DNA of 64,000 nt from contig CM035356.1 in assembly GCA_020137815.1 (NCBI GenBank), positions 1,984,001 to 2,048,000 of the forward strand, given 5' to 3'. The notes beneath the pieces are model-generated. The model searched no databases and had not been told where the DNA came from. It saw only the letters and a list, made by a program, of their open reading frames with translations. Positions 1,819 to 46,080 of the stretch are shown piece after piece. The position numbers were made by a program, and so were the translations under genes. The DNA comes from Hormiphora californensis. Lineage: Eukaryota; Animalia; Ctenophora. How positions within the stretch are numbered: the stretch's first letter is position 1; each line of letters opens with the position of its first letter.

Positions 1819-2927
1819 TTGAACAGGTGGTTCCAACTAGTTTCATAGACCTTCACCCTTTTCTCGCCCTGTCTCCCTCGTTTCAACAGGTCATTAGTAA
1901 TAGCTTGTTGATCTGTCACCATAATTGATAATGCTTTATTATGATGTTACCGACACGCGTCAAAGAATATGTCAGGGACTAGCTGATATATAAAGGACTG
2001 CTTTGAATCGTTTTTGAAGAGGGTCCCCACCCTAAAAAGAAGAGCCGCTAATCTGTTCGTCCAGTGTGTGTACGAGATCTATTGTTTGCCGGTACCCTCT
2101 TTACCTTAGACGCTGCAGTTTACACATAATAGCTTCTAGTGGGCCAGCTCTGCAGCAGCAGGTTGTTTTAATTTCTTATTATGTATGGGTGCACTTTTTA
2201 GTAGGGGAGCTCATTTCCGGGGGGACTTGCGTTGTTAATGACATCAACCAATAACAACATGTAGCCCGGGACACTGCAGCTTGCTTTATAATCTAACCAA
2301 TAGTTGCAGTGGTAATGTGTTCATCCAGTCATGAACCTTTCTTTTGCGAACCACTTGTATAAAACAGCTCTCTTAATTATTCAATGTCGTAACACCATAA
2401 CTTTACGGGGGGTAATTTGCCCTCTTTGGGAAAAGCAGCTTCCTTCGAAACACGTTCCCCCAACACATGTCATGTTTTCTCTCTTATCTTATCTTATATG
2501 CTTATCTGATACGATGACGATGAGAGAACAACAAAAGTTATCATCTCGTAATACTTTAATTTTTTTATAGTCTGTTGAATTGTAGCGTACAGTATATCAT
2601 GATGAAAATTACAGTAATCGTCCTGATAGCCCTCCTTCCTCTCCTTACAAGGTGGGTGTTCATTCATTTTAGAGACATTTAATATCATCCAGGGCACGCA
2701 GCTTTTTGCATCTTTTCATTATCCTTTCAACAGAATTATATAATCCCCTGACCCCAGATCACTCTCAGCCCAATGACCCCAGCTCCCTCTCTCAGCTCAC
2801 TGACCCCAGCTCTCCCTCTCAGCTCACTGACCCCAACTCCCTCTCAGCCCACTGACCCCAGCTCCCTCTCACTGACCCCAACTCCCTCTCTCTTTTCACT
2901 CTCACTCACTCTCTCTCTCCCTCTCAG

Positions 2928-3714
2928 CTCGCAGGCAGTTAACACGGAGGAGGTGGTGGATACGCTCAGTGCCCTCATGTGCAGTCGCCTTTCAAAGGGT
3001 GTAGTACGAACCAGTGATAAGGAGATGAGAAACTTCTGCGAGTCAACCAAGACCATCATATGCGATCAGTAAGTGCATTGTCATGCGATGCCCGGCCACG
3101 ACCCTCTCTCCCGGTTTTAACCTGTCAGAGCGTTGGCTTGACCCTGTTCTAATTTCTTTCACGGAGCACACGAGAACATAGAACCTGACAGATCCAGTGA
3201 TGACACTAAAGCTCTACCTCCCCTCAGGGAAATTAAACTAAAGCTCTACCTCCCCTCAGGGAAATTAAACTAAAGCTCTACCTCCCCTCAGGGAAATTAA
3301 ACTAAAACTCCCCCCTCAGGGATACTTTTGATAAGTCATCTGAGGAGGTATCAGGGTTTGCCTGTAAGGGAGTGAAGAATCCAACTCTATCCTACCAGAT
3401 GCAGAGGACCCCGGGATACGTGTGTAGCTACTCTGGAAGCAGTGAAAAGGTACACTTACTGTCTCATATTACGGCCTCCCTTGCACCTCCGGAGATCTCT
3501 GGAGGTGCAAGGGAGGACGTTATGTATCATGGCTCTTTTTTGAGTTATTGAGTACTGTTATTGAGTAAGGAGTAGGACGATTTGATTGGATACCCCATTA
3601 TTAGTGGTACTGATACCCCATACCAAAACAGCTGCAATAGCGGTACCGACAATAATGAACTTTTTGCAGGTCAAAGAATTAAAACGGAGAATGGAGTATA
3701 GTGGATATTGTTAA
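2928..3714 (+). CDS. 3' exons of an unidentified spliced gene
   Basis: Three phase-compatible exons (2928-3068, ~3320-3449, 3670-3714) with AG/GT borders read ...SQAVNTEEVVDTLSALMCSRL...DQ/DTFDKSSEE...SSEK/VKELKRRMEYSGYC*. No recognisable domain; upstream exons uncertain. Confidence 0.45.
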
Positions 3715-4547
3715 AGGACATCCCCTTAACATCATCAATGTATACGCGATGTATACAATGTACAATGTACATATTACACCGTGTGGATAGACCCGCCCCC
3801 AGATAGAGAGGATCAGTACATTCTTCAATACCCTAGTAGAGAGCGCTGGACCGTTTTTTTGCTTATTTCACAAATATTTTATCGCACACATAGTCCGAGC
3901 TACAGAAGAAGTCCTGCAGCGTTAGGTTTGTCTTTTACACACACACACACGAGCTTGTGCAATTGTAAATTGATGTTTTCGAACTAATATTCTACGAGTT
4001 TTATTTGGTACCCAATGACTATGTATGCAATATCCAGGGGGCCGGGGGGTGATCTGGATGGACCGGGTAATGATTTGATTTGAAATAGATATTATATAAA
4101 CGTACAAATTGCACATTAAATAAATACCCGACTGACTCTTACTAATAGTTTAGCAGCCTATGGCGCGAGTGCTTACGTCTTAAAAAACTCGTTTAAAAAT
4201 ATTTAAATAAAGTAGCTATAAGGCTAAAACACACTCTTATACTAGTTGTAATCTAAATTTATTTCACTCATTAATAATAACAATTATACTTAATACTTAC
4301 CCTTGATTCCCAGTCCCCTTCCTCCCTCCCCCATGAACCATACCCCGAATTTAACGTCATGTCGACTGTTGGGTAGATCAGTTATAATTCACATCTGTGG
4401 TGCGGGTCCACCATCTTGTTTCAAACTGTTCAACACCACTCCAAACCTTCAATTTGAGTACAATGTAAGAATGAAAGATATGTGCGGAAGAAGGACAGTT
4501 ACTGTAAAGATAAAAGAAGAGAAAGGGGCCCACACCACAGCAGCGGA

Positions 4548-7500
4548 TTAAGTTATGTCGTGTAAGGCTTTCCAGAGATGGTCTTTCAGTCTAGAGGAAA
4601 ATAAATGGTGTTCAGCTGTATTTCTCAGTTCTTTAGGAAGTAAGTTCCACTCAAGGTGGCAGCGGTAAAAGTAACAGTTTTTGAACAGGTCTACTCTGGG
4701 TTGTTCGGTACATATAATGTCCGTACTGTCTCGGTTTGTTTGTTGTCTGGTGGCACGTCTGTCATGTAATTCCGGATTGTATTTTTGTAGGAAAGATGGA
4801 AGTTTTATAGGAGACGTCTCATAGAATATTTTATGGAACAATTTAAGATCATTATATTGAAATTTTTGAGTCATTGGGAGTACGTCAATCTCCCTGAGTT
4901 TCTTTATATACGTATCTAAACTATAACTGGTATCTGTTTCACCGAATATCCATTTTGTGGCACGTTTCTGGAGTCGTTCAAACTTAAGCAGACTTGACTC
5001 ACTTTGTGGACGCCATATTTGGCTACAGTGTTCGAACAAAGATCTAACTAGACTAATGTAGAGGTTCTTCTTTTTAAGGGGACATTTAACTAATACGCCT
5101 ACACGCTTCACCAGTCCTAATCTTTGAGAAGCTTTGGAAACAACATTTTTCTGGTGTTCGATTGGCGACAACTTGTGATTAGTTGAGACTCCTAGATCAA
5201 CTTCATTTTCACATAATTTGATTTCATCTCTGCCTAGGTGATAATTTAGTTGACGTTGTTTAATAATTTTAGTACACCTAAGCAGCTTACACTTTTTAGG
5301 ATGGAATATCATTTTATTATCCTTTGCCCATTCCACTAAACTATCGATGTCGGGCTGCAAACTATCTTCTTCACTATTTATAACCCGCCAAATTTTCAGA
5401 TCATCTGCATATAGCCTAATTTTAGTTAGATCATCTTCTCTTAAAACATTAACAATATCATTTATGAATAACACAAACAAGAAAGGACCTAGTATTGATC
5501 CTTGTGGAACTCCACTCCTAACCTCTACCCATTCTGAAAAATCTCCATCTAACACAACCCTCTGTTGCCTACCAGATAAATAATTCATTAGGAAACGCAA
5601 CATCTTACCTCCTAAATTAAACTCATTTTTCAGCTTATTTATTATTACATCATGAGATACACTATCAAATGCTTTCTGAAAGTCAAAGTAAACTATATCA
5701 GTTTGATTTCGGTTATTTATGTTCAACGCTAATTCACAATTAAACTCAATCAGTTGTGACGTACATGATTTCAAGGGTACAAAACCATGCTGGTAGGGAG
5801 TTATTTTTTCTAGACAGGCTTTATATAGGCGTTCTCTTACTAATTTCTCAAAAACTTTCATAACAAGGCAAGTCAGGGATATAGGCCTATAATTCTCAAC
5901 GCATGATCGTTCCCCTTTCTTGTAAACTGGGACAACGTTCGCGGTTTTCCATTCTGTTGGTATACATCCCTCTGAGTATGATTTATTAAATATAAGGGTG
6001 AGTGGATAAGCTAGGGATTTATGACATTTCTTAAGCACAACACCGTCAATATTATCTGGACCTGTTGCTTTTGACGCATCCAACTTTTTTAGAATCTTTT
6101 GGATCTCATCAAATCTAAATATCTCAGAGTTAAAATCATTAGTGTGATCTCTATCAATATCAACAGTTTCTTTGTAGGTGCTAGATTCAGTGAATTGATT
6201 ACAGAAAAATTCATTGAACATTTCACATTTACGACGACTCGAAGAGCTAAATTTATTATTAAAGTATACTCTCTCAGGAATTCTAGTGCTATTCGTTTTG
6301 GACTTAACGTGTTTGAAAAATTTCTTTGATACATTAGCATTGGGTGTAAGTTCATCTATAGAGGAAAGCTCGAGAAAAGATGTTTCTTTCTCTATTGCTA
6401 GTGTTCTGTATTGATGTTCTTTGAGTTCGTATTCCTCTTTAGCTACAGTACTATCTATATTTTTCAAGAAGGCTTTTCTAGAGTTATCGAACGATTTCTT
6501 AAGTTGGCGTAGTTCTTCATCATACCAAGGTGGCTGTGAGCCAATTTTTACATTGACTAATGGTACATTATGACGTAGTGCAATGTCTAACCTAGACTTA
6601 AAGACTTGTAGGGACTGCTCTGCTGACAGATCCTTGAACTGTCCTAACCAGTCAATTCCTAAAAGCTCTTCATTTAGAGAGTCCCAATCAGCTTTTCTAT
6701 AGGAGAATTTCTTACAATTTTTATACTTAGGGCGTGATTTTTTGAAATTTATCTCACATTTTAGTGTAAGATGGTCCGACTTTACAAGACTATTCTCTTC
6801 GAGCAAAACATTAGAATAAGTAGTTTCTATGTTAGTAAGTATTAAGTCGAGAATATTTCCATCCCTATGCGTTGGTACATTAACTAGAGATTTTAGGCCT
6901 AGAGATAAAAATAAATTGATAAAACTCTCATGAGTACTATTATTTGACACTGGGACGTCCCAGTTATCCACCGAACTTAGGTTTAGATCCCCTATAATGG
7001 TGAGATTCTTAAACTTCTTAGCAAGATTAGTATAGTAACGTTCCGCCTCTTTGAAGTGTTCCGATCCAGAATAATCATATCTATAAAATGTCGAGATACA
7101 AACGGGTGCTATATTTTTATGCTTTAGAAGAATAGTAACTATTGGTAAATCGGTCTTCGTTTTAACTAACTCTGTCTCAACTCCAATATTGTTTTTACAA
7201 AGTATTAAAACTCCTCCACCTCCTTTTTTACTAAAAGTTTTCATATCCTTCTCAGTGCGGTCTTTTCTAAATATAGAGTAATATTTATCTGATATAAGTT
7301 CCCCTTCACTAATATATTTATTCAGCCAAGTTTCATTTAAAACAACAATATCGGGCGAGTAGGTGAATAAGTATGCTTTTAGATCCCTAAGTTTAGAGGC
7401 CTGAAATTCAGGCTGATCCCCACCTATTGTGTGCATCTTTATCAGACCGTTAACATTACAATACACTAAGTTCAACTTTTTATCAGGTCCTGGATTAATA

Positions 7501-7958
7501 ATGTCAGGATGGCTTCTCAGCAGTAGCATTTTCGCTAACGACGTAACAAACATAACAAGTATAGTATATCTGCATCTGACTTTGAACAAATTAATGCCTG
7601 CAATCCTAAACTTTTTATAACATCGATATGCATACTTACTATGTCTCATACCTTTGACTAAGAAGAGGAATAGGACACAATTTGCATACCAAATATATGG
7701 TGAATTTAGATCAAACACAAATTGGCCTTCTTTTCTGAACTTGACGGGTGGAGGGGTACTCCTGAGCATTATTCCTAAAAGAGCTATCATTAGTATTGTG
7801 TAACAAATATATATGAGGAAATGATAGATTAGTATGTCTGTCGTTTCATTGTATTGTCTTTTGTTATTGTCGGTGTTGTCAATTTTTATCCTTTTCCCCC
7901 CAGCCAGACCCCCCGCAAAACCCCCAATAGCTTTTCTGTATTGTTCGACACTGATCAT
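4548..7958 (-). CDS. LINE ORF2: APE endonuclease + reverse transcriptase
   Basis: APE motifs YCNVNGL, DIVVLNETWL, IIGDLN, ILDLILTN, SDH; RT motifs KATGPDNI, NYRPISLT, QHGF, DFQKAFDSV, GVPQGSILGP, YADD. Uninterrupted frame. Confidence 0.97.
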   Translation of the reverse strand: MISVEQYRKAIGGFAGGLAGGKRIKIDNTDNNKRQYNETTDILIYHFLIYICYTILMIALLGIMLRSTPPPVKFRKEGQFVFDLNSPYIWYANCVLFLFLVKGMRHSKYAYRCYKKFRIAGINLFKVRCRYTILVMFVTSLAKMLLLRSHPDIINPGPDKKLNLVYCNVNGLIKMHTIGGDQPEFQASKLRDLKAYLFTYSPDIVVLNETWLNKYISEGELISDKYYSIFRKDRTEKDMKTFSKKGGGGVLILCKNNIGVETELVKTKTDLPIVTILLKHKNIAPVCISTFYRYDYSGSEHFKEAERYYTNLAKKFKNLTIIGDLNLSSVDNWDVPVSNNSTHESFINLFLSLGLKSLVNVPTHRDGNILDLILTNIETTYSNVLLEENSLVKSDHLTLKCEINFKKSRPKYKNCKKFSYRKADWDSLNEELLGIDWLGQFKDLSAEQSLQVFKSRLDIALRHNVPLVNVKIGSQPPWYDEELRQLKKSFDNSRKAFLKNIDSTVAKEEYELKEHQYRTLAIEKETSFLELSSIDELTPNANVSKKFFKHVKSKTNSTRIPERVYFNNKFSSSSRRKCEMFNEFFCNQFTESSTYKETVDIDRDHTNDFNSEIFRFDEIQKILKKLDASKATGPDNIDGVVLKKCHKSLAYPLTLIFNKSYSEGCIPTEWKTANVVPVYKKGERSCVENYRPISLTCLVMKVFEKLVRERLYKACLEKITPYQHGFVPLKSCTSQLIEFNCELALNINNRNQTDIVYFDFQKAFDSVSHDVIINKLKNEFNLGGKMLRFLMNYLSGRQQRVVLDGDFSEWVEVRSGVPQGSILGPFLFVLFINDIVNVLREDDLTKIRLYADDLKIWRVINSEEDSLQPDIDSLVEWAKDNKMIFHPKKCKLLRCTKIIKQRQLNYHLGRDEIKLCENEVDLGVSTNHKLSPIEHQKNVVSKASQRLGLVKRVGVLVKCPLKKKNLYISLVRSLFEHCSQIWRPQSESSLLKFERLQKRATKWIFGETDTSYSLDTYIKKLREIDVLPMTQKFQYNDLKLFHKIFYETSPIKLPSFLQKYNPELHDRRATRQQTNRDSTDIICTEQPRVDLFKNCYFYRCHLEWNLLPKELRNTAEHHLFSSRLKDHLWKALHDIT

Positions 7959-8087
7959 TGAATGGGAATGGGTTTAGGGTTCAGGAATGGGTTAACAAAT
8001 GGGGAAATTAGGGGACAATGATGAAAACTCGGCCCCCCAAACCCCAGAGAATTGTTATCATTAAATTATATATTATAAATCAAGATA

Positions 8088-9548
8088 TCAGTTAAAAACT
8101 AACTCCTCATACATAATCTCATTTAACACATTGTACCCATTACTGTTGAGGTGTACTCCGTCCTCCGAAAATAAAACACTATTAAAATTAAGTTCATTAT
8201 TTAAAAACTCAATTGTCCAATCCGAAACTACACAATTCAAAGACCTTCCTACACTCATCACAATACGATTGAACATGAACACGTTACTCGCTATCCAACC
8301 ACTATCAGGTCTGAGAGGGATAACCGTAGCGAGAACGATCTCGGTATCCTCCCCAAACCTTCTCCTAACCTCCCTAACTAAATCTACATATGCCTTATAC
8401 ACACTCCCTTTTCCCTTACTCGACCTTACAAACCCTCCCCAATATCTGATGTCATTGGTCCCAAACGCCAAAATAACCTTATTAACCTCTAGACATGGGT
8501 GCGTTACTTCCAGTCCTTTCAACATATCCATAGCCAAACTCCCCCTCCAGTTCTCATTCGGCCTACAAAGTCTCGCCCCTGAAATCGAGATGTTCACTAG
8601 CGCCGGGTCCTCGTGGATCCACTTCGTCATACTGGTTCCTAGTAGAAGTGTCCTTGGTGTCAGTCTGGGGTTCGGCAGTGTTGGTGTTGGTAGAAGGGGC
8701 GATCTGGTAGGGAATACAGAGTTCTCTTCCTGATACCCATCTACGGCAGGCGGCGAGGTTGGCGACAAAGTCATCTGTGATGCTGGAGCTTCCACCCGAG
8801 ACTGGTGTACTGGGAACTGGGGCACCTTCTGGGACTTAGCTGGGGTTGGTGCAGGTGGAGTTGGTTCTGGAGGCGATGTTTTGTGCCTCTTCCTAAAAGA
8901 CAGGGCATATCTCACGCCATACTCAACCTTTTGTGCACGGTGCTTAAAGTGCTCTTGGCATCCTGGCTTCATGGTGTACGCCTCACCATCCTTAGTGGTT
9001 ATAGACAGCTTAGGCCGCATCCGGCCATCTCCAAGGTAGGGAATGAAATCTACAGCACCATCGCTGCCAACGGTCACGACGGTGATGGGTGAGTTGTCCA
9101 CCAGCGAAGTCTCGAAATCTGAGTGGTATCCCACGCCGTCCCCTTTTCTGTATCTAGTGACTAAGCAGGAGTTGAACTCAGTCCCTAGTTCCTTGTTAAT
9201 CCTCTCCATCAGCTTATCGATGTTCGGGTATTTAGTAATGTCCTTGGGTGTCAGGTCCACGTTGGCCCACCCGTAGGGACACCCAGTGTTAGTTAGCCAG
9301 GTATTCTTGCCAGTTAATCCTCCTACTTCCCATTTCATCATCTCGAGGTCCTCATCAGAAACATATCTCCCGTGGTGGGTAACAAACTGATTCGGATCCT
9401 TTTCTGGAACTCCATCTCTCTTACGCCTCTCTAGCTCCTTTTGTACAATCTGTATAATCCTCTCCAACACGGGCGATGATACCCTGGTAAAGACTTCCTC
9501 TAGAGGTGTGTTGTCTAGAATCATGTTGGAGGCGTTGTTAACAACCAT
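8088..9548 (-). CDS. LINE ORF1: AlkB-like 2OG-Fe(II) dioxygenase + Pro-rich linker + SGNH esterase-like domain
   Basis: FNSCLVTRY...GVGYHSD...FKH...RYALSFR (HxD...H...RxxxxxR as in ALKBH2/3); then LLLGTSM, ISGA, FGTND, DGVHLN (SGNH blocks I, II, III, V). Confidence 0.9.
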   Translation of the reverse strand: MVVNNASNMILDNTPLEEVFTRVSSPVLERIIQIVQKELERRKRDGVPEKDPNQFVTHHGRYVSDEDLEMMKWEVGGLTGKNTWLTNTGCPYGWANVDLTPKDITKYPNIDKLMERINKELGTEFNSCLVTRYRKGDGVGYHSDFETSLVDNSPITVVTVGSDGAVDFIPYLGDGRMRPKLSITTKDGEAYTMKPGCQEHFKHRAQKVEYGVRYALSFRKRHKTSPPEPTPPAPTPAKSQKVPQFPVHQSRVEAPASQMTLSPTSPPAVDGYQEENSVFPTRSPLLPTPTLPNPRLTPRTLLLGTSMTKWIHEDPALVNISISGARLCRPNENWRGSLAMDMLKGLEVTHPCLEVNKVILAFGTNDIRYWGGFVRSSKGKGSVYKAYVDLVREVRRRFGEDTEIVLATVIPLRPDSGWIASNVFMFNRIVMSVGRSLNCVVSDWTIEFLNNELNFNSVLFSEDGVHLNSNGYNVLNEIMYEELVFN

Positions 9549-9598
9549 TCCTAAAACTCCATGGCTAAAACAGGCTGTTAATCCAAGAACATTACGTC

Positions 9599-9632
9599 CT
9601 CAAATTAATTTGTTTAAAGTAGTGTCGAAAAG
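9599..9632 (-). other. Genomic copy of spliced-leader-like sequence in the LINE 5' region
   Basis: Minus strand CTTTTCGACACTACTTTAAACAAATTAATTTGAG; 33/34 identical to the copy at 16551-16584. Matches the ctenophore SL as recalled. Not followed by a GT donor. Confidence 0.8.
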
Positions 9633-10003
9633 CCTGATCGGGTGATGGAAAAAAGGAGTACAAGAGGGAGAGATAGAGAGGTCTGTTAATAACGTTCCAA
9701 TAAAAAAGGGCAGGTCGTTTGCCCCCAGAATCCAGATCCATTATTCCTCAGCTATTTGTTGAACCCCAGGTGTTCAAATACCGATCCGATAGGGGGCTGA
9801 CAGTGCAGATATTATAGTGTTGTTGATCTCCTGCTACCTCCATAGCCCTCCATCCTGGCCTGGCCCTAACTGGAGAATACCTACTATAGAATATTAGAAA
9901 CCCTGCCATCGACTCTTGTCTCTTGGGTCACAATGAGAACTGTTTTAGTTTTAATTGTGATAACTCTGTAAGTTTAACTGAACCTTGTTAATGAGCTTCT
10001 ATT

Positions 10004-10858
10004 TTGGTACAGCCTTTGAAAATAGTCTATTTCAGCTCTCTACCAGACGCCACCACAGCACATAACAAAGTTGAGGGTGAGCAGAACAACTTCACTCTCA
10101 ACCTCCTCCGAGTCTATCTCTGTAGTGGGGATGAGAGATGGCTGGATGAGATCCAGGATATCTCCCTGTACATGGTAGCCAAGGTTGCATATCTCGTGCT
10201 GTGCACAATAGACGACCCAGACTTCCTAACCCATGCAATACAAACCTTCCTGCCGTATGTGAATCACGATGATATGAAACCTGCCCGGGCATGCCTCAGG
10301 AGCCTTGCAGTGCAGTACATTGGTGAACTGTCCTGTTATCCTGTTATCATGCAGGAACAGGTTGTTGTGTGGAGAGATGTCTTGTGTGTTGGTGAGGCAC
10401 AGTGTTTAGATCAGGGGATCTGGGATCTCTTTGTGAGGATTGTGGATAGAAAGAAGGAACAATTGAGGGAAGAGTTGTGTCCCAGAGATCTGTTGGAAAG
10501 AAGCGTTTCTAACCGTGGACAGTATCGTAAAGGGAGCAATGGTGGTAACGGACGTTGCCATGGTAACCGATGTACAACTAAGAATCCAGTCCCAAAGGAC
10601 CGTCATCTCAAGTCTGGTCCAGCTCACTCTAGGATCAAGAGGCAGTTTGACCCTCCAGCACACTCTCGGATAAAGAGGCAGTTTGACCCTCCAGCCCACT
10701 CTAGGATCAAGAGGCAGTTTGACCTACAGAGTACCCTGACCCTGTTCAAACATGTGATTTGTGGCAGTGAGCTATCACACCTACTATGGGATGAGGATGA
10801 TATTGTGTATTCAATGTTTAGTGGTTATTATTGTTGTGTTGTTAGGGCCATATCTTGA
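10004..10858 (+). CDS. Unidentified ORF/terminal exon with three 13-aa repeats
   Basis: 284-aa ORF, acceptor-like TTCAG near 10035, 39-nt unit PAHSRIKRQFD(P) three times at ~10619-10722. No recognised domain. Confidence 0.45.
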   Translation: MVQPLKIVYFSSLPDATTAHNKVEGEQNNFTLNLLRVYLCSGDERWLDEIQDISLYMVAKVAYLVLCTIDDPDFLTHAIQTFLPYVNHDDMKPARACLRSLAVQYIGELSCYPVIMQEQVVVWRDVLCVGEAQCLDQGIWDLFVRIVDRKKEQLREELCPRDLLERSVSNRGQYRKGSNGGNGRCHGNRCTTKNPVPKDRHLKSGPAHSRIKRQFDPPAHSRIKRQFDPPAHSRIKRQFDLQSTLTLFKHVICGSELSHLLWDEDDIVYSMFSGYYCCVVRAIS

Positions 10859-11532
10859 ATACAATTCAGTTTAGTTTTACTGTTATTGAAAGCTGTAATT
10901 TATGGTAATATCCAATCAAAATATAATCGAGACTTATTAACGTCTGTTTCTACACACATCGAAATCACAACCCACAATCCTCTTACTATTATACACCCGA
11001 CCAAATTTCAAAAAACCCCTTTTTCATCTGTCTGGCGGAGCCAGACCCCGATTTGATTCTCAAGTGCGCTCAAATGGGTCCCCCCCCCCCCGGTACCGCG
11101 TGCTCAACCCCAACACCCCTTGTACTTACATTCCATATAACAAGGAACATGAGTATAACAGCGATAGGAAGGGAGAGGATGGAGAGTCCTATTTCCACTG
11201 ACATGATGTACCAGCCTTGCTATAGAGAGAGGTTATTGGGTTAGAGGATCTGTTACTGAAAATCAGATGGAATTGTAACTCTGGTAGGGATAGTTAAGGG
11301 GACCCGGGATAGGGGAATATGTTAAACAATAAGATAAGTGACAAGGCAGTATGAGTAAAACGGTATAAAAACAAATTAATAAATAGATGCACTCTGATAT
11401 TATAAGTTGCTGCGCTGGCTAACTCCACCCCAAAACATATCAGCGGTAACATAAAATAGTTACTATGGAAACCATCAACCGTCCCAACCACTTCTGAGCT
11501 GATTCAAGCTACAGTACCCAGCTGATCACTTT

Positions 11533-14500
11533 CTACAGTTCGTCAGATTGCGGCTGTAGTTCCAGGGCCTTGAACTTTTCCAGTTGGTAGAACATGCACT
11601 TGACAGTCCGGCCACCGAAGAACCGGTTATGAAGATCAACCACCGCTGTAAGGGAGTGAAATATGTGTGAGCTGCTTTATTTGGGTATTGGGCAAGTTGT
11701 AATTTGGGTACTTTACTACTAACTATCACTGGATACTAGCTTTAGGTGGGGGGGGGGGGTGAAATGTGTGTTAGCTGCTGTATTTGGGTTCCAGGGCATG
11801 CCTGGCAACCCGAGGAAGGGTCTGGTCCAATCAAGTGAAGGTGGTTGAAAGTGGTTGATTTATGGGATCTAAACCAAGTATAATTCAGTAGATACCACCC
11901 ACCTTTAATTGCACTCTCCACACGTTGGAAATGAACGAATATCCTCACGGCCTCTTCTACCGCTACCCCACTTGGTATCTCGTAAATAACAACCTAGTGA
12001 TAAATTGAAACTCAATTAGCTGCTTGCTTCAGATAATTCAAACCGAACCCGGATCATAAATTTAAACGCTTTTTACTCGTCTAAACCAAATAACCTGGAC
12101 CACCTCCCCATATTTGGTCATATTACTAACCTGGACGACCTCCCCATATTTGGTCATATTACTAACCTGGACGACCTCCCCATATTTGGTCATATTACTA
12201 ACCTGGACGACCTCCCCATATTTGGTCATTACTAACCTGCACGACCTCCCCATATTTGGAGCACTCTTCCCGGGTCTCCGCCTCCAGATCATCATCCACC
12301 TCCCCAGGTCCCACCATGTTCTTCAACAGGATCACCTTACTAGGCTGCTTCAGGGTCTTTTGGACCTGCTCTGCCTTAGCTTTCCGTTCTGAGTGAGGGG
12401 GGAGAAAGAGGTTCTGAGAGAGAGAAAGAAGTTCTGAGAGGGAAAGAGTGGGGTTCTGAGACCGGGGGGGGGGGGGGGGGCTGGGGTGAGACTTTGGCGA
12501 AGTACCAACATCACGAATTTCTTGCTAGACATAACTATCACAGACACAATTGAGTCCCCTATTTGGTTGCATGTAAGGGCGTTCTATAGACTGTGTCTGT
12601 TAGACACAGGAGAATTATATATCTCTTAGGCAGCTGCAGGTTGTTAATTGTTGTCTGACGTGTCATCCTGCATTTTCGGAACGTGTTCGTCTCAACATTG
12701 CGCGTCGCAGGCTGTACCAAACCCGGGTGAACAAGCTAACAATAGTGCAATTACATGCGCGCGATGCAGTATATCGCATGTAAGTTCACTATTGTTAGCT
12801 CGTTCACCCGGGTTAGCTCGTTCACCCGCGACGCGCAATGTGTAGACGAACACGCTCCGAAAAGAGAGCATCATCCCAAGCACACGTGTCGTCAGCTGGT
12901 TTAGTTGCCCAAGCAATATGATGTACACGTGGTGATAACCGTTAAAGTTGGATGAGGTCTATAACTGTGGATCTAAAACTGTTTAACTCTAACTTAAAAC
13001 TGTATAATGTTGTCTCTTTATAGTTCTTAGCCTGTCCTAATCTATTCGACCCTCTTTCACCACACCGTGTTTATCAGGGGCTACAGACTACTGACTAGTC
13101 TGGGTAGTAAAACAAAAGAAATATCAACCCCCATATCAACATAATATGTGCCTAAACGGGCTAAACAATATGCTTTGCATTATTCATACTGTCTGGCCTC
13201 TGGGCTCAGTGCCCGGATATTGCAAACCCCTGACAGTCTGGGACGCCACCCCGTCATTAGCTAAACAATTGTATTTAAACACGGCTGTTTTGTTCATTGA
13301 AAAGGTTATAACCCATTTTGTGTCGACCCTGCAGCCTAGATATATCGAGTTTTATTGCGAGTATTATTTGGTTAACAAGGTGGCATTTAATGTGGGAACA
13401 GCTCTGATACATGTTGTCGATACAACAACGTAAAACCGATATTGGTTTTCAAATTGAGCTAGTTATTACCTTCCTCCTGTCGTGCTAGTTCTATCCTTGC
13501 TTTAGTTTTCTCGGCACTCTCATTCACAATTACACCCCGTGCCCTTCCAGTCTTCTCAACCTGGAGGGCAGACGCCATACCTTGCTCAGCCTTACCAAGA
13601 CCTGTATAAGGGTGGGGGGGTAGTTGGATCTGTTGATGATGTAAAGAGGAGTAGGAGATAAATTAGTTGAGTCTCAACTAGCTTATAATAGTAGCTACTA
13701 ATTTACTAATTGGTTAACAACTAACAAAAAACAATTAGTACCTACCCTGTCCCTCCTTCCACCCGTATTTATTCATGATGTTACTGGCGACACTGCTGAT
13801 ATTCTTAATACTCATCACCCGGGTATGTTTGATGTCTGAATCTGTCTGTTGTAGGAGCTTCTTAGAGTCAACCTCCGGGTGTAGCACGTGTGCCCTGAAG
13901 GAGGGAGGTTGTTAGAAAGTATATCATGCGTAAATGATAAATTAATTAATGCTGGAAAGAGTGTTGGTTACGAAGTCACCCCTATTATTGCATATAGCGC
14001 AGAGGGGGAATTTCATTACCAAGAAAGAGTGACAGTTTGATTGTAAATCGATTATATTATAGTTATACATTCACCGTTCACTAGCCCTGATTTCAAAATA
14101 ATGGTAACTTGTAAAGGAGGTTTGAAGATTTGTGGAAAGAATGGCCCTAAGGTGATCAACAGGGGGTTTGAACCTACTTGTTTGATTTGTCCTTGGCGAC
14201 CAGGGAGGCTGGAGGGGCTATCATAGCGCCACCTTTAGCTGTTGTACTGGGTCCATCGTACTCATTGGTTTCTGTGTCTAGGGGGGGGGGGGTTTAGATA
14301 AAGAAAAGGCAACGTAAATCATAAAATTAAGGGCTAGAGTTTATCTTGACCTGGGCAATATCTTGGGCAATATCAAATGTGTACCTTTGGAAGATCCTTT
14401 TCCGTCCTTCTTCTTCTGTTTTGGATCCTCATAGAAATCCAGATCATCCTCAATACCCATCTTATCCCCATCATCCAGGTAGGCTGATACCAACGATTTA

Positions 14501-15571: not shown

Positions 15572-18500
15572 CTACCCACACCGCAGTGTAGCGAGTATCC
15601 CCCAGTGATCACTGGGAAACATGTCACAACTAATCAGCTTCTCCTGTCCGATCAGCTCGAATGAACGGGGCGAAAGGGAGTTAGATCCACCTCCGTTTCT
15701 GAAGTTGAACAAAATATGTCAAGGAAATATTTAATGCTGGACTACAAAACTGAGAACCTGATACCTAGGTGTACCATGAATAAGAGCATAACATCTGATA
15801 AGCATAGATTATAAGCCGTACAATGAGCCACACATTACAGTGACTTATAGAGCACAGTTCACACCGTACCTGATAAGCATCCTATCAAATCGGAGTCGGG
15901 CCTTATTACCCGGGGCACTCTCCCGTAGGTTCGTGTTCTGGGCCATGTCCCAGGTATAACGAGTCTTGCTGTCACTACCACACGCCTCCCAGATATCCTG
16001 CAGGGGGAGGGGGTGAGGGGAGGGGACTATATACATGTTGGGGGGCTGAAATTTTTGAAGCGATTTTCAAAAACTTCAATAGGTAACTAAAATGGGTAGG
16101 AAACTTCAACTTGTTTTCCATTCTCCAGCCTCCGTGTCCCAGGTGAACAATGGTGACCATGAGAAAAATAATACCACATGTGAAGAGAAATGGTATTTCT
16201 TTCTCAATGTAGTGTGAACTATGAAACAAAGCCCTGGACTATAACAGAATGGTATGTTGTAATAGGGACGAGCTGGGTATACAACATGAAACGGGAAACC
16301 CAGCTTCACTTCTTATTTCTTCTCCGTATCGTTATAACAGTCCATCACCAACACGTACGTACCTCTGGTTACGAAATAACCCCTCTCCCTAGCGCGAAGT
16401 TGGTTACGAAGTCACCCCTTTTATTGCATACAATGAGCAATATTTGTTTGTTGGGATGATATCTCCTTCCGGCTTCAATCAATCAGGGACAAAATGAAAA
16501 GCGGTGTTTTTATTAACGAACAGTTTCGATGTTACAACATCTTCCTCAGCCTCAAATTAATTTGTTTAAAGTAGTGTTGAAAAGTTTGACTTTGTTACCA
16601 CAACTACCTTGACTGAGCTGCCTGCATGATGCTTGTTGATGACTGCTTGGTATTCCTTATCTCGTAGATTGGTATCCCCTCCAAACACCACACAGCACCC
16701 ATCAGTAGCACCCATCTTATTTAGCACCTAGTGGGTGATATAATGATGTTCCTTGAGTATACTTTTATTTATCTTAGTTGTTTTAGTCATTTGGTCTAAC
16801 CCCCTCCCTCGTACAAACTGAACAGTCCTGATTGGTCAGTAATGTGATGACAAACAAATTATTTTTTATTTTTGGGCAAAAGGAAGAAATAAAGGGCTAT
16901 CCGGCAAGTCTTCTGTCTGTGTTTTCTTCTCCCTGAGTACACAATCAACTACTATAATTACCTGTTCTAACTGCTTCTCTCGTTCCTGTCTGTTGGGTCC
17001 GAGACTCTCCAGGTGTGACGTCATGAACTGAATAGTGACGTCATTGTGCATTGTACAGGGCACACTGATGAGGTGCCGGTACATGGTACTGCTGGGAAAT
17101 GGGTGGATAGACTCCCCTCCTATCTTAGTTATTGGACTATCATCGCCACTGAAAGGGGTCGGAGGAGGGTAGAGAGGGGTGGGTGGTTTATGGTTAGGGG
17201 TTGGAGGAGGAGGGTAGGGACTAGGGAGACGTGGGTGGTTAGGGGTTGGAGTAGGGGAGAGGGGGTAGGTGGTTAGGGGTTGGATGAGGGGAGAGAGGTA
17301 GGTGGTTAGGGGTTGAAGGAGGGTAGAGAGAGGTGGGTGGTTAGGGGTTGGAGGAGGGTAGAGAGAGGTGGGTGTTTAGGGGTTGGAGGAGGAGGAGGGT
17401 AGAGAGGGATGGGTGGTTAGGGGTTGAAAGAGGGTGGAGATGGATGTGGTATATAAACAAATACTGAATATTAGATCTCTAACTAGCGATTAAAACCATT
17501 CTTGGGAAATTTCACTGTTTTGAATTTTGAGCTAGTACCTGTAAACCAGTAGGACGTTGAAATAAGGCACTTGGGTGTCTCCTAGGAAGAATCTGTAGGA
17601 TCCTCCCAGACAGTCAATAATGGGTGACACATGTGCCTCCACTACCTCTTGTAGCATCACCTAGAGAAAGATATGTAGTCAGAGATAATTAACTGATTAT
17701 TTTAATTGTCGAGTTTTAGTGGGTGTAGATAATCATATAACTAGCCAGTAACCAGTATCATACTGTAATTGCCATATGAAGCCTGCGTAGATAATATCTC
17801 GACAGTAGTAGCCAATTAAACTTGACGTCACAAGGCAAGTGATTATGTTTAGTTGTGCAATTGTCTACTGCAGCCGTGATGTCACTAGTAGACTGTATGG
17901 ATCAATTCTACTCCTGGCACGTCTGTCAATCTAGTCGTTACTATATCAATCTAGTCGCTACTATATCAATCTAGTCGCTACTATATCAATCTAGTCGCTA
18001 CTATATATCTTTCACGCTGCTATACTACTGAGCTGTTTAACTTCACCTTTCTACACCTTTCTTCAGCTGTTTCGCATCGAGAGCTCTAGACAGCAAACAT
18101 ACACCCGGGAAAGAATACAAGCTGTTATGCTACCCCCGTCACAGTGTAGTATTTAGGACCGCCAGACATGGCTGATATATTAGTTTACAAGATAGGATAT
18201 AAGTGCACTTACAACAGTGCACTTACAACAGTAGGTTTCCGTTGTTTTATCTCCCTTATCACTGCTCTAAACCGATCTCCAATGAACTTGCTACAGAGCC
18301 CATCGACATTCCAGGATAACACAGTCAACTCTGTGGGCCGTTCCAGTTTCGCCTGATGAGAAGAGTTCGTTATTATTATGAGGTTATTAACCTAATTTCA
18401 TCATCATGGAACAGTAGGATTGATCTTCTGGTATTCTCTTTCTTTCTTTCACAGCTCACATGTCTATCAAAATTCCTCCATATGTAAAATGAGCCTAGGC

Positions 18501-40441: not shown

Positions 40442-41996
40442 TTAACCTCTTTTTGTACAAGAGACCTCATGTTTCATCCTTGACGGATAAGAGCTAAACT
40501 TTTCCCTACAATAAAAACAATTATAGTCTTTTTTATCAGTGTGGGACTCAGAATAATGTATCTTTAAAGAATGAGCTCTACTATAACTCTTCCCACATTC
40601 CTTACATTTGAAAGGGACCTCACCGGTGTATTTAAGCTGATGTAATCTTAAATGAGATGTGCAAGAAAATGTCTTACCACAATTAGCACATTCAAAAGGT
40701 TTTTGTTTAAGTCCACTGTGAATATGTTTATGACGTGTTAAATCAAACTTACTCCAAAAGGACAAAGAGCAGGCATCACACTGGTGTGGTCGAGCTGGGT
40801 GTGAGGTTTTTATGTGATGATCCAAATCAGCTTTTGGCATTCGACTACCGCATTTATCTACCCGGCATGTCACAATAGTTTTACCAGAATGAACATTTTT
40901 TTGATGACGATGTAAATTCGGTTTCAAGGAGAACAACTTCCCACACTCTTCGCACTGGTATGGTTTATCTCCACTGTGAATCAAGCTGTGTGTCTTTAAA
41001 AGACTTTCCTTTTCGAACCCCAAAGGACATATTTTACAGCGGAATTTTCTCTCTGGATGGTCAAGTCTGACGTGTTCAAATAAGTCTTTTTCAGAAGATT
41101 TTATAACCGAGCAATCCTTAAGTAAACACTCAAAACCTTTTCTTTTACCATTTTCGTCAAGAATCACCCTTTTTTTAACTTCATTAGGATTGAGATGGTT
41201 CTTACGAATTGTACCCCTAGGTTGATACACCGAATCTGAAACTTGAGAGGAAGGTAGAGATGTCTCTACACTCTTGACCCGGGTAGACTTCCGAGGAGGT
41301 GGAACTGAGGCAGAGAGTTGTTTAGATGGTGGCTGGGGAGGAGGGGACTGGGACGGAAATGATGGCAGTGTTTCATCTTCACTAGAATCAGTAGTAGTAT
41401 CGTCCCCAGAATTCATCATATCAATTAAATTGCTAATTTCCTCTCCACTACTGGATTCAGAATCGTCATCTGAACAGGGCTCATCCTCAGAGGAATCATC
41501 TGAAAAGAAAATCAAATTTAGAGCGAGGAAAATGATTAAAACCAAAATTCAAAAAGAAAATGATAAGGTTTGCAGGAAACGACCGAAACAACAACAAAAG
41601 GCCCTTACCATCGTCTGAAGACACAAGTATTGGTGAAGCAGCAGAAGAATCAGGAATAGAGTCACTGTTACTTTTAATTTGACCTGATTTCATTTCTTCA
41701 GTGAGTTTAGAGGTCACTGGTTGCATCTCTGGCTCTTCCCCAGTTTGAATTGCTACATCCACTAACGTGACCGATTTAACAACCCGGTACCCTAGACGGT
41801 GGAACCCTGATTTTCCACAGTGATCACACAGTTGTGTAACGACATGTTTATCATTCACCATCGTTTCGAAATCTTTAGGTAAGGTGGGTGTCGTAATGGC
41901 AGGTTTTGTATCTTCCACCACAATATCCTCAGTTTTCAGTAGAGGTGGGAGAACTTGAAACCTTCCTTTATTGGATGTCTTTCGTCTTTTTGACAT
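40442..41996 (-). CDS. C2H2 zinc-finger protein, tandem copy 1 (2 exons)
   Basis: Exon 1 MSKRRKTSNKG (41996 to ~41610), acidic linker, about 8 C2H2 fingers with HSGDKPY/TGEVPF linkers. Confidence 0.9.
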
Positions 41997-42849
41997 TTTA
42001 CTATGGAAGGAAGGGTTTTAGATTAATAGTCAGAAATAATTAATGACTAGGATTTGGCTAATAAAAAAGCAATACGATACTACTCAGAAAGGGAAAGACC
42101 AGACCAGAGAAGGAGAAAAAACCAATACAGAATGTAAAGTTAGATTTTCAATGATGTAAACCGGGGGCGTGCATCCTAATTTTTTTCGATTTGTGTGTGT
42201 TACACCTACAAGTTCCTGAAAAGCTTAAATTTCGATATTGAAAGTGTTGGAAAGATAATTTTAAGACCTTTTCAATGCAACCAAGTTCAATTATTCTTCA
42301 TATGATCAGGAACCAAAGATATGATCAAAATGGTTTATCACAAACAAATCGAATTATGCAAAAACACTGTGTGTGCGCACTCCACAGTGCGCACCCCCAG
42401 TTCACATGATTAAAAATCGAACTTTAGAATAGTCGATAACTACATTGATCCCTCCTAATTATTGCATTTTTTGTTCCATTTGTTTGAACACACGACACGA
42501 CCTCTGAGCAAATACATTGAAAAACTGAACAATTTTTTCGTCCGATTTTTATGAAACTTGGTGCAAAGATAAAAACAATAAATACGTGAAAAAGTTACAC
42601 CTGTTCAGAGGTCGTGTTAACTGTTTAGAGGGTACAATGAAATGTAACAAAAATTTTAAGGGTTCGATGTAGTTATCAACTCTCCTAAGAGAAAACAGTT
42701 AATTAAAATGATAGGATACTAAAAATATTCCGCTGCAGAAGATACGTAAAATATAATATCCTTATTCCAGTACTATTCCAGTACTACAGCAAAAAGGTAG
42801 TATATTCTTTAGCTTTAGCACTGGGATAACACGGATAGGAAAGTAACAG

Positions 42850-44414
42850 TTACCCTCTCTTTGTACAGGAGACCTCATGCTTCGTCCTTAACTGATAAGA
42901 GCTAAACTTTTTCCTACAATAAAAACAATGATAGTGTTTTTTATTAGTGTGGAACTCCGTATAATGTTTATTTAAATAACTAACTCTACTATATGTTTTT
43001 CCACATTCCTTACATTTGAAGGGACGCTCACCCGTGTGTTTACGCAGATGTATTCTTAATTGAGATGCGTAAGAAAATTTCTTATGACAATAATCACATT
43101 CCAAAGGTTTCAGCTGAAGTCCACTATGTGTCCGTTTATGACGTGTTAGTTCAGCATTACTCCAAAAGGACAAAGAGCAGGCATCACACTGGTGTGGTCG
43201 AGCTGGGTGTGAGGTTTTTATGTGATGATCCAGATCAGCTTTCGGCATTCGAATACCACAATTATCCACCCGGCATGTCACAATAGTTTTACCAGAATGA
43301 CAATGTAAATTATGTTTCGATGCAAACGATATTCCACACTCTTTGCATTTGTATGGTCTATCTCCACTATGAGTCAAGTTGTGTCTCTTTAAACGCTGTT
43401 TATAGTTGAAACCCGTTGGACATAATTTACAACGGAATGTTCTCTCTGGATGGTCAAGTCTGACGTGTTCAAACAAGTCCTTTTCAGAAGATTTTATAAC
43501 CGAGCACTTCCTAATCAAACACTCAAAACCTTTTCTTTTACCATTTTCGTCAACAACTACCCTTTTTCTAACTTGATTGTGATTGACATGGTTCTTACAA
43601 ACAGTACCCCTAGGTTGATTCACCGAATCTGAAACTTGAGAGGAAGATTGAAATGTCTCTCCACTCTTGACCCGGGTAGACTTCCGAGGGGGTGGAACTG
43701 AGGCAGAGAGTTGTTTAGATGGTGGCTGGGATGGAGGGGACTGGGACGGAAATGATGGCGGTGTTTCATCTTCACTAGAATCAGTAGTCGTATCGTCCCC
43801 AGAATTCATCATATCAATTAAATTGCTAATTTCCTCTCCGCTACTGGATTCAGAACCGTCATCTGAACAGGGCTCATCCTCAGAGGAGTCATCTGAAAAG
43901 AAAAATCAAATTTAGAGCGAGGAAAACGATAAGTTTTGTAAATACAAAACTGATTAAAACCAAAATGCAAAAGGAAAATCATAAGGTTTGCAGGAAACGA
44001 CCAAAACAACAACAAAAGGCCCTTACCATCGTCTGAAGACACAAGTATTAGTGAAGCAGCAGAAGAATCAGGAATAGAGTCACTGTTACTTTTAATTTGA
44101 TCTGATTTCATTTCTTCAGTGAGTTTAGAGGTCACTGGTTGCATCTCTGGCTCTTCCCCAGTTTGAATTGCTACATCCACTAACGTGACCGATTTAACAA
44201 CCCGGTACCCTGGACGGTGGAACCCTGATTTTCCACATTGATCACACAGTTGTGTAACGACATGTTTATCATTCACCATCGTTTCGAAATCTGCAGGTAA
44301 GGTGGATGTTGTAATGGCAGGTTTTGTATCTTCCACCACAATATCCTCAGTTTTCAGTAGAGGTGGGAGAACTTGAAACCTTCCTTTATTGGATGTCTTT
44401 CGTCTTTTTGACAT
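42850..44414 (-). CDS. C2H2 zinc-finger protein, tandem copy 2
   Basis: Same structure as copy 1; short in-frame deletion in finger 3 (NLHCHSG). Confidence 0.9.
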
Positions 44415-45524
44415 TTTACTATGGAAGGAAAGGTTTTAGATTAGCGATCAGAAATAATTGATGACTACGATTTGGCTATTAAAAATAATAATACGATACT
44501 AATCAGAAAGGGAAAGACCAGATCAGAGAAGGAGGAAAAACCAATACAGAATGTAAAGTTAGATTTTCAATGATGTAAACCGGGGGCGTGCATCCTAATT
44601 TTTTTCGATTTGTGTGTGTTACACCTACAAGTTCCTAACAAGCTTAACTTTCGATCTTGAAAGTGTTGTAAAGATTATTTTAAGACCTTTTCAATGCAAC
44701 CAAGATCAATTCTTCATATGATCAGGAACCAAAGATATGATCGAAATGGTTTGTCACAAACAAATCGAATTATGTAAACACACTGTGTGTGCACAGTGCG
44801 TACCCCCAGTTCACATGATTAAAAATCGAACTTTAGAATAGTCGATAACTTCATTGATCCCTCCCAATTATTGCAGTTTTTGTTCCATTTGTTTGAACAC
44901 ACGACACGACCTCTGAGCAAATACATTGAAAAGCTGAGCAATTTTTTCCCTGCCCGGGTGAATGCCGAAGGCATTCACCCGGATGCCTTTTTGCTTTGCA
45001 AAAAGGCATAGCAGGGTTAGAATTCGAAAACGAATTAATCGGTAGAGGGACCTTTTTGGTCACACTTTAGTTGCGAGGGGCAACGGTGTAGCAACAAGAG
45101 CCGCGCACACAGTTACGAGCTGCTCCTTCATAAACCACTTCATTGGCAATTTAGTGCTACTAAAACACAAGGATTTGCTCTATACTGTTTGTGTGATATA
45201 TAAATGATCGGGATTTTGTGTCCCGCTTGCTGCTACAGCGGATCTGGTCATGATTTCCTTTCTTCATAGATTCACATGGCAGGGAAATTCAGCATTATGT
45301 TAGAACATAATGCAATTGATCTTGTTTCGTCCGATTTTGATGAAACTTTGTGCAAAGATAAACGTTCAATAAAAACAATAAATACGTGAAAAAGTTACAC
45401 CTGTTCAGAGGTCGTGTTAACTGTTTAGGGTACAATCAAATGTAACAAAAAATGCAAAATTTTAAGGGTTCGATGTAGTTATCAACTCTCCTAAGAGAAA
45501 AAAGTTAATTAAAATGATAGGATA

Positions 45525-46080
45525 CTATCAATATAGTTGTTTCAGTAGGCCACAAGAGAGCTCTATCGGCAAGGAACCGAGAGCAGATAGTACAACAAAT
45601 AGAAACACGTTGGTTTACAAACAAATGTTTCGATCTTGCGATCTCATCAGTGTAATAAATAGGAAAACAAAATTAAACAAAATTATCCGAGTATGCTCCT
45701 TCATAAACTCCTTCACAGTAAAAACTTCTTTTTGTGTCGGCATTTAGAGAGGATCTCTGTTCTAGAATTTAACAGCCGCTGGTCCCTCGATCTTCGCACA
45801 ATCTCTAGCTTTTCCGATGTACAGAGGTCGCATGTTGACTGGCCCACAGTGTAAGGTCTTCCTCTCCTCAAGATCTCCCACTCGATATCCCACGATCTTC
45901 CTTCACGTTTCAGATCCCAGATCTTTTCGGACAGCTTTTTTTTTTACTGTGAAGGAGTTTATGAAGGAGCATACTCGGATAATTTTGTTTAATTTTGTTT
46001 TCCTATTTATTACACTGATGAGATCGCAAGATCGAAACATTTGTTTGTAAACCAACGTGTTTCTATTTGTTGTGATAGGA
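45525..46080. mobile_element. Inverted-repeat insertion (about 130-bp arms) present only in the second zinc-finger spacer
   Basis: 45592-45724 is the reverse complement of ~45940-46072; absent from the homologous spacer at ~42715; an arm fragment recurs at 52306-52368. Confidence 0.8.

Follow-up and report, generated by a model that had tools for sequence, protein, structure and literature searches.

The 64,000-nucleotide stretch of the Hormiphora californensis (Ctenophora) genome analysed here (assembly GCA_020137815.1, contig CM035356.1, positions 1,984,001 to 2,048,000; hereafter the window, in whose own numbering positions are given) contains a complete young long interspersed nuclear element (LINE) at 4075-9634 on the minus strand, flanked by TGAT repeats. 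The first open reading frame of this element (ORF1) encodes an AlkB-family Fe(II)/2-oxoglutarate (2OG) dioxygenase domain fused to an SGNH esterase, the second (ORF2) encodes an apurinic endonuclease (APE) and a reverse transcriptase (RT), and a spliced leader stands at the 5' end. The parts of the element are listed below with the evidence for each, in which pLDDT denotes the predicted local distance difference test score and UTR an untranslated region.

4071-4074, no strand: target-site duplication, left copy TGAT (joint 4070 to 9635, at which 4 letters fit both sides; also the final letters of the 3' tail repeat)
4075-4547, minus: 3' UTR, closed by a short repeat tail of TCAAA type (sequence; contig depth climbs from the bin starting at 4005)
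4548-7958, minus: ORF2, 1136 aa, with hydrophobic N-terminal extension, APE and RT (Pfam, motifs, hydropathy)
7959-8087, minus: ORF1-ORF2 spacer, 129 nt, pyrimidine-rich before the ORF2 start (sequence)
8088-9548, minus: ORF1 (protein P0001), 486 aa, ATG at 9548, stop at 8088 (open reading frame and Pfam)
8097-8657, minus: SGNH/GDSL esterase domain, residues 298-484, with S306, G324, N365, D463 and H466 (Pfam PF13472)
8658-8882, minus: proline-rich disordered linker, residues 223-297 (pLDDT, conservation, composition)
8883-9395, minus: AlkB-family Fe(II)/2OG dioxygenase domain, residues 52-222, with lid Y92-x-W94 and H142, D144, E146, H203, R213 and R219 (Pfam PF13532)
9414-9503, minus: N-terminal helices, residues 16-45, ending RRKR (AlphaFold model)
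9549-9598, minus: 5' UTR, 50 nt, with two upstream ATGs (sequence)
9599-9634, minus: spliced leader, GG plus 34 nt at the element 5' end (leader match; within the inserted DNA)
9635-9638, no strand: target-site duplication, right copy TGAT (empty-site joint, junction sequence)

The insertion was examined with contigs of four public DNA runs (X2, X5, X8 and X11) aligned to window positions 2500-11500. An empty-site joint, which runs from 4070 directly to 9635 and skips 5564 bases, is present in two of the four runs, in one contig of X2 with a short side of 30 letters and in two contigs of X5 with 38 letters. TGAT comprises the four letters common to both sides of this joint, which indicates a 4-bp target duplication, and a joint from 4039 to 9928 in X8 (organism B) is consistent with absence of the element there as well. 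Because the empty-site joint drops ORF1 and ORF2 together, ORF1 is part of a young insertion that is missing from other alleles and is not an adjoining host gene. An earlier model-made reading of the bare letters (the sequence-only reading) had proposed an AlkB-family enzyme carried by the LINE itself, and the position of ORF1 inside the inserted DNA, together with its linkage to APE-RT in other elements described below, bears this out. The ORF1-ORF2 spacer is bridged by contigs in X2 (record 12, 7864-8336) and X8 (record 29, 7871-8313). Contig depth, which is not equivalent to copy number, is 416-905 over ORF1 in X2 versus 55-107 in the four bins past the 5' end (9724-10927), and increases toward the 3' end in X2, X8 and X11, being irregular in X5; such a 3' bias is expected of 5'-truncated LINE copies. 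A search of the element found no long terminal repeats (LTRs), which makes it a non-LTR element, and its 3' end carries the TCAAA-type tail and no poly(A). The element thus has what characterises an APE-type non-LTR retrotransposon: a single ORF2 holding both APE and RT, absence of LTRs, a target-site duplication, a 3' tail and 5'-truncated copies. Two further joints in X2, from 4857 to 5455 and from 5522 to 6517, occur at high depth (758) and point to a derivative of the family with internal deletions that is probably non-autonomous.

ORF2 is unbroken from 7958 to 4548 and matches two Pfam families, Exo_endo_phos (PF03372, E 3.8e-8; APE at about 6771-7457) and RVT_1 (PF00078, E 1.6e-30; RT at about 5241-5921, with YADD), so that the APE-RT element is intact as had been read from the letters. 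Relatives of ORF2 at E<=1e-100 number 202 among the 7988 candidates scored. From its esterase ORF1, repeat tail and C-terminal WNxLP motif, we take the element to resemble the CR1, L2, Crack and Daphne clade of the Jockey superfamily. Residues 1-157 of ORF2 (window 7958-7490) form a hydrophobic extension closing in NPGP immediately before APE; this NPGP is retained in most close relatives but falls short of the full 2A-type consensus.

ORF1 likewise matches two Pfam families, with no further match at E<=0.1: 2OG-FeII_Oxy_2 (PF13532) at residues 78-210 (E 4.9e-13; 50.2 bits versus a curated cut-off of 31.2) and Lipase_GDSL_2 (PF13472) at residues 318-473 (E 4.9e-10; 40.6 bits versus 32.9). The AlkB ligands picked out in the sequence-only reading are present as H142-S-D144, H203 and R213-x5-R219, and the SGNH domain that it placed after them, with GTS in place of GDS, has its residues at G-T-S306, G324, G-T-N365-D and D463-x-x-H466. 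An RNA-recognition motif (RRM) or zinc knuckle, neither of which had been obvious by eye, gives no Pfam match in ORF1 at E<=0.1, and the CCHC pattern occurs in none of the 150 representatives of the family described below. An AlphaFold model of ORF1 has two confidently folded domains on either side of a disordered linker at residues 225-296 (pLDDT below 50 throughout); this proline-rich region (19 Pro in the 75 residues 223-297) is the least conserved part of ORF1. The model also places N-terminal helices at residues 16-22 and 25-45. By analogy with the ORF1 protein (ORF1p) of zebrafish ZfL2-1 (PMC3905857), residues 16-45 are predicted to be a multimerising or RNA-contact segment.

A search with the single ORF1 sequence returned 14 relatives at 27-86% identity, 12 of which have both Pfam domains on record, and the organism-named members of this set are Pleurobrachia bachei gene models. 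With a profile of the AlkB domain built from 12 sequences, 150 of 1.84 billion representatives score E<=1e-30, each a separate 50% cluster. A local profile detects the esterase in 102 of these 150; where at least 150 residues follow the AlkB domain, as in 102 representatives, it is detected in 97. Ten of the 150 were looked up, giving two named clusters, both Mnemiopsis leidyi; every eukaryotic name returned is that of a ctenophore (Pleurobrachia or Mnemiopsis). The Atlas has AlkB+GDSL clusters of 103, 61 and 66 members; among those with a recorded phylum, Ctenophora is the most frequent (1-3 records each). Linkage to APE-RT is seen in contig L001 (6346 bases), where an AlkB-SGNH ORF1 30% identical to that of the window is followed by an APE-RT ORF2 that is 40% identical, and in two joined gene models, P0408 (from the cluster of a Mnemiopsis leidyi protein; AlkB-AlkB-SGNH-APE-RT) and P0412. 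A single-copy ORF1 unlinked to other ORF2 copies, which the sequence-only reading had named as the finding that would overturn it, is contradicted by the empty site, by L001 and by these fused gene models. On such sequence comparisons, the AlkB-SGNH ORF1 LINE family is large and deeply diversified and spans two ctenophore orders. Moreover, an RT tree built from 120 sequences (two others were removed for short alignment), which took in relatives only and no named reference elements, has the window element and L001 on opposite sides of its midpoint root, implying that the AlkB-SGNH ORF1 type is old or else has passed from one lineage to another. Tandem double AlkB domains occur in P0283, P0282, P0318, P0321 and P0325, four of which precede an esterase. 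Two other candidates were rejected: the AlkB-APE-RT proteins P0375, P0411 and P0412 are not read as a true single-ORF variant, since they switch from mid-esterase into APE as gene-model joins would, and the ORF1 of P0024 and the ORF2 of P0129 are not taken as one element, the equal length of their contigs (6402) being a match expected by chance.

The five Fe/2OG ligands (H, D, H, R, R) are invariant in 15/15 full-length relatives; of the 150 representatives (<50% mutual identity), 134 span all five positions, and 133 of these have every ligand intact. A loss of these ligands among relatives had been stated beforehand as evidence that would count against the enzyme. Y92 is Tyr in 131/134 representatives and E146 is Glu in 145/150. 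The esterase is similarly preserved, with the S, G, N and H residues retained in 70 of the 72 representatives covering all four positions, and its block I reads GTS in 61 of 88, GSS in 13 and GDS in 13. Comparison of window 8860-9612, which includes the AlkB domain, with organism B contigs gives 23 synonymous and 16 non-synonymous differences, a ratio of non-synonymous to synonymous polymorphism (pN/pS) of 0.20 (binomial p 8e-7), which is uncorrected, includes copy-private changes and covers the 39 classed of 74 listed differences (40 shown, one being absent from organism B). From its sequence, the AlkB domain looks active and selected. A further run, X19, which may be of RNA, has two contigs of low depth over the AlkB region, and these we do not count as a sign of expression.

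As to its class, the family profile gives 55-60 bits for ALKBH2 and ALKBH3 in the PDB and 18-22 bits for E. coli AlkB, and its 31 PDB matches at E<=10 include no ALKBH5, no FTO and no other human ALKBH. Identity to human ALKBH2/3 is about 21%. Fold comparison of a separate model of the AlkB domain (pLDDT 88.5) gives ABH2 (3bty) at Z 21.9 with a root-mean-square deviation (rmsd) of 2.3 A over 167 aligned residues, ABH3 at Z 21.0, FTO at 18.3 and AlkB at 17.7, the ABH2 and ABH3 matches lying at Z 21-22 and rmsd 2.2-2.3 A; the Foldseek ranking concurs with ALKBH2/3 as the nearest fold and has ALKBH5 at rank 43. In the active site, Y92, W94 and E146 align with ALKBH2 Y122, which contacts N1-methyladenine (m1A), F124, which stacks on the base, and E175, the active-site acid (PMC3985658); the equivalent Tyr143 matters for the activity of ALKBH3 (PMC10816986). 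Between helix 65-76 and strand 82-86 the model has about 5 residues versus about 20 in ALKBH2, including the Phe102 hairpin, as counted from alignments without superposition. This long beta-hairpin carries the wedge with which ALKBH2 probes duplex DNA. The modelled AlkB domain appears to lack an ALKBH2-type duplex-DNA hairpin, and the absence of room for one points to single-stranded substrates. By profile, and less sharply by a fold that all these enzymes share, the domain is ALKBH2/3-like, of the type that repairs m1A and N3-methylcytosine (m3C), and not ALKBH5/FTO-like.

Outside animals, one phage protein and two plasmid proteins, picked as top matches, score 71-87 bits with the family profile. 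Four plant-virus-type AlkB domains score 32-42 bits versus 55-60 for human ALKBH2/3 and form their own long-branched group, so an origin of the domain from plant viruses is not supported. Narrow pattern scans from the AlkB-domain alignment gave 19 pattern matches in prokaryote genomes and 19 in viral contigs, none of which was confirmed, and a metagenome pattern scan gave 2 confirmed of 74.

On balance, we consider it probable that the ORF1 dioxygenase removes pairing-blocking m1A and m3C from the element's own single-stranded RNA and thereby lets the ORF2 RT copy it fully. Methyl groups of m1A and m3C lie on the pairing face of the base and stall reverse transcriptases. ORF1 is retained in a new insertion only when reverse transcription extends to the 5' end, so that repair of the RNA would be rewarded. 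In the proposed cycle, host trans-splicing would give the element RNA its leader, and ORF1p would multimerise through its N-terminal helices and coat the RNA, to which these helices and the AlkB pocket would hold it. The AlkB domain would then oxidise N1-methyl-A and N3-methyl-C using Fe(II), 2-oxoglutarate and O2, and might also serve as the folded surface for nucleic-acid binding that is otherwise missing from esterase ORF1ps. Finally, ORF2p would nick the target, prime reverse transcription from the 3' tail and copy all 5.5 kb. The esterase may target ORF1p to membranes, as proposed for ZfL2-1 (PMC3905857). A precedent is provided by plant-virus AlkBs, which repair methyl lesions and prefer RNA (PMC2553587). 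The sequence-only reading had offered two functions, repair of m1A/m3C lesions and erasure of host marks; the first fits a domain closest to ALKBH2/3, whereas the second is the weaker for N6-methyladenine (m6A), given the lack of any ALKBH5 or FTO match with the family profile.

Several observations weigh against repair of the element's RNA. The YxY/F lid motif and the acidic residue are also found in the m6A erasers ALKBH5 and FTO (PMC3985658), so that lid and acid do not fix the substrate, and FTO lies only about 3.5 Z units under ALKBH2 in a fold ranking in which the whole class shares the fold. The position of ALKBH2 Asn159 is Thr131 here and is occupied by Ser (56), Thr (48), Gln (11), Asn (8) or Ala (7) in the 150 representatives; the four viral AlkBs compared have Gln. 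In ALKBH2, Asn159 contacts 2OG. Most LINEs transpose without AlkB, which makes the enzyme at most an advantage, and DNA context was seen for few of the 150 representatives, the standing of the rest as LINE ORF1s being inferred. In addition, AlkB-less forms exist, which speaks against an essential role: in P0030 (1134 aa, from a 3894-base contig), the initial 38 residues of a sister-family ORF1 lead in frame into an intact ORF2, 89% identical to that of the window, and neither AlkB nor esterase is present. P0030 may derive from an ORF2 mRNA made by splicing or from a copy with an internal deletion. The window DNA shares an AG at both points that match the P0030 fusion, P0030 itself being known as a protein.

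Other roles for the enzyme can be weighed on the same evidence. The dioxygenase might instead erase m6A, or another host-written mark, from the element RNA to evade sequestration or decay, in the manner of the AlkB domain of an orchid Gypsy element, which demethylates m6A RNA in vitro, and in keeping with a report that m6A restrains a plant retroelement (PMC9289625). FTO is, moreover, the next class in the fold ranking, and the lid motif is common to ALKBH5 and FTO. We nevertheless regard this role as unlikely, since the PDB matches of the family profile at E<=10 include ALKBH2, ALKBH3 and E. coli AlkB but neither ALKBH5 nor FTO, HxDxE carries an acidic residue as in ALKBH2/3, and m6A promotes LINE-1 mobility in mammals (PMC9289625). 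A shade less credible to us is a DNA substrate at integration, whether methylated bases in the opened target strand, the new complementary DNA or 3-methylcytosine (3mC) from host DNA methyltransferases (DNMTs). The best structural matches are indeed complexes of ALKBH2 with DNA and of ALKBH3 with single-stranded DNA, ALKB2 co-evolves with DNMTs because these make 3mC, and Mnemiopsis has CG methylation (PMC9246332); but the duplex-probing hairpin is apparently absent from the model, the host probably has a nuclear repair enzyme of its own, and ORF1 proteins chiefly coat RNA (PMC3905857).

It is rather improbable that the AlkB fold is kept mainly as an RNA-binding or chaperone module with catalysis incidental. 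In favour of such a module, the esterase ORF1ps catalogued in Repbase lacked an RRM and any further structural domain for binding RNA (PMC3905857), the present ORF1 has neither an RRM by Pfam nor a CCHC knuckle, and the two AlkB domains of some members recall the repetition often seen in RNA-binding modules. A domain that only bound RNA, however, would be expected to lose its ligands, as several viral AlkBs have done (PMC2553587), rather than to keep them in 133/134 representatives at <50% mutual identity. That ORF1 is a host gene next to a LINE insertion, or an artefact of assembly, is barely credible. No single aligned contig covers the entire element, and G+C content at third codon positions (GC3) is 0.52 in ORF1 and 0.32 in ORF2, a gap that may reflect separate origin or different selection; but the loss of ORF1 and ORF2 together at the empty site and the arrangement in L001 refute it, overlapping contigs bridge the spacer, the same order recurs in L001 and the fused gene models, and ORF1 is intronless.

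The 5' end of the element bears on how its RNA is made. Bases 9634-9599 comprise GG plus 34 nt, 33/34 of which are identical to a second copy at 16551-16584, so that the 64-kb window holds 2 leader matches versus 0.00 expected. The last 39 bases of the second copy equal, by eye, the published ctenophore leader ending in AATTTGAG, which is found on at least 56% of full-length reads and in 718 genomic copies (PMC8527503). An Rfam search with the leader gave no match beyond one unrelated weak hit. The empty-site joint skips the leader, which must then have arrived with the element. Organism B contigs (records 8 and 31) likewise run from ORF1 into the leader, and no contig with a different sequence upstream of the element UTR is found among the 10 of 13 loose-end rows listed. 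A sister sequence in X5, X8 and X11 (window 9554-9612) has the leader and 5' UTR in common and diverges at 9554, before the ORF1 start; it may be another family or a short element. After the leader the element reads GACG and the second copy GCTG, neither offering a GT splice donor, which marks both as leader copies and not leader RNA genes. The second copy (16551-16590, minus) extends further 5' than that of the element and is either what remains of a leader or the start of a further retrocopy.

A leader inside inserted DNA implies that the RNA template of the element carried the leader, probably through trans-splicing, and points to a way in which a LINE may exploit host trans-splicing. The leader lies 50 nt from the start codon, its sole AG is formed by its last two bases, and the additional GG may have been copied from the cap. 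We infer either a single capture of the leader, which has since been copied along with the rest of the element, or its renewed addition by the host in every cycle, with the AG of the genomic leader as acceptor, by analogy with dinoflagellate retrogenes (PMC12014239). An AT-rich motif ending TTTAG and followed by GT is shared by L001 (520-570) and L002 (35-85) upstream of ORF1. It is real between the two (reached in 0/300 shuffles), but its resemblance to the leader of the window is unconvincing, the score being reached in 91/300 and 10/300 shuffles; it may be the leader of another ctenophore or a splice acceptor. Leader-bearing LINEs may explain part of the 718 and 491 leader copies in ctenophore genomes (PMC8527503). 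Literature searches by title or abstract start found no paper on a leader-capped LINE or on ctenophore LINEs.

Taking the two halves of the element together, we tentatively suggest, as a possibility we hold to be doubtful in its full extent, a phylum-wide ctenophore LINE lineage in which ORF1p would be a two-enzyme protein for repair of its own RNA, the first LINE with a repair enzyme in ORF1. Such elements would perhaps have no internal promoter, the AG of the genomic leader serving as trans-splice acceptor on read-through transcripts and a precise, capped 5' end being regenerated in every cycle.

Elsewhere in the window, candidate plus-strand exons at 2926-3068, 3306-3450 and 9995-10858 flank the insertion on both sides, and the LINE may sit antisense in an intron; 9995-10855 has no Pfam match. 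A second short stretch, 11028-11063, is covered at very high depth, with loose ends to either side in each of the four runs, which indicates another dispersed repeat. The minus-strand stretch at 12062-12524, on the strand of the element and upstream of it, contains a short repeated segment (12103-12260) and resembles a splicing-factor RRM, with no Pfam match at 0.001; it is a candidate gene. A C2H2 zinc-finger gene is present in three tandem copies at 40442-47251 (minus), and the remaining host genes include MON1-like, AIRS/SelD-like, WD40 and O-GlcNAc-transferase-like genes.

The closest known architecture is that of the esterase-type (Type IV) ORF1p of CR1/L2 LINEs such as zebrafish ZfL2-1 (PMC3905857; PMC4120745), which shares the N-terminal helices, a poorly conserved linker, a C-terminal SGNH domain with S, G, N and H, the lack of an RRM or CCHC knuckle, and an APE-RT ORF2 downstream. 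The ctenophore ORF1 differs in the complete AlkB dioxygenase added between helices and esterase and in an esterase block I that is mostly GTS. A 2013 Repbase survey describes a folded RNA-binding domain in no esterase ORF1p (PMC3905857), and the main text of a 2014 survey of 448 Jockey-group ORF1s contains neither "AlkB" nor "oxygenase" (PMC4120745); AlkB likewise has 0 occurrences in the searched text of the retroelement-domain surveys PMC4120745, PMC6431247 and PMC5408684. The element presents a new ORF1 architecture, and a possible answer to how an esterase-type ORF1p without an RRM holds RNA. The literature searches, with Repbase, Dfam, supplements and most subscription journals outside their scope, found no AlkB-bearing LINE, so that the novelty supposed in the sequence-only reading stands within that literature for an AlkB ORF1, but not for retrotransposons at large, an active AlkB-bearing Gypsy element having been described from orchids (PMC9289625). 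As ctenophore gene sets list AlkB ORF1s as ordinary gene models, they can inflate counts of host ALKBH genes.

The Phalaenopsis Ty3/Gypsy elements (PMC9289625) are likewise retrotransposons with a fixed AlkB domain in which HxD...H is intact. They are LTR elements, in which a recent, ALKBH5/ALKBH9-like domain with demonstrated m6A demethylation occupies a separate extra ORF in one orchid lineage, whereas the ctenophore element is non-LTR and its domain is fused into ORF1, ALKBH2/3-like and deeply diversified. The replicase AlkBs of plant RNA viruses (flexi-, clostero- and potyviruses; PMC2553587) offer the best functional model, an ALKBH2/3-related domain in a multidomain protein of a replicon with an RNA stage, but are not the nearest sequence relatives of the ctenophore domain (32-42 bits versus 55-60 for human ALKBH2/3). 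RNA-stage replicons thus recruit AlkB repeatedly (plant viruses, orchid Gypsy and now LINEs), here from another AlkB subclass and in an old, diverse family, which makes testable whether methyl damage to template RNA limits retrotransposition and adds to 5' truncation. Human ALKBH2 and ALKBH3 and the ALKBH2/3-like proteins of bacteria and large phages have the same fold, lid Tyr-x-aromatic, HxDxE, distal His and RxxxxxR; relative to the human enzymes, the ctenophore domain is without a Phe102-type hairpin and has mostly Ser or Thr at the Asn159 position. Finally, dinoflagellate retrogenes with spliced-leader relics (PMC12014239) are also reverse-transcribed, re-inserted RNAs that keep the leader at their 5' end in DNA. 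What they carry is host mRNA, and a shortened relic is left after re-splicing, whereas the ctenophore case concerns an autonomous LINE itself, in which re-splicing would leave no relic because the only AG of the leader is at its 3' end.

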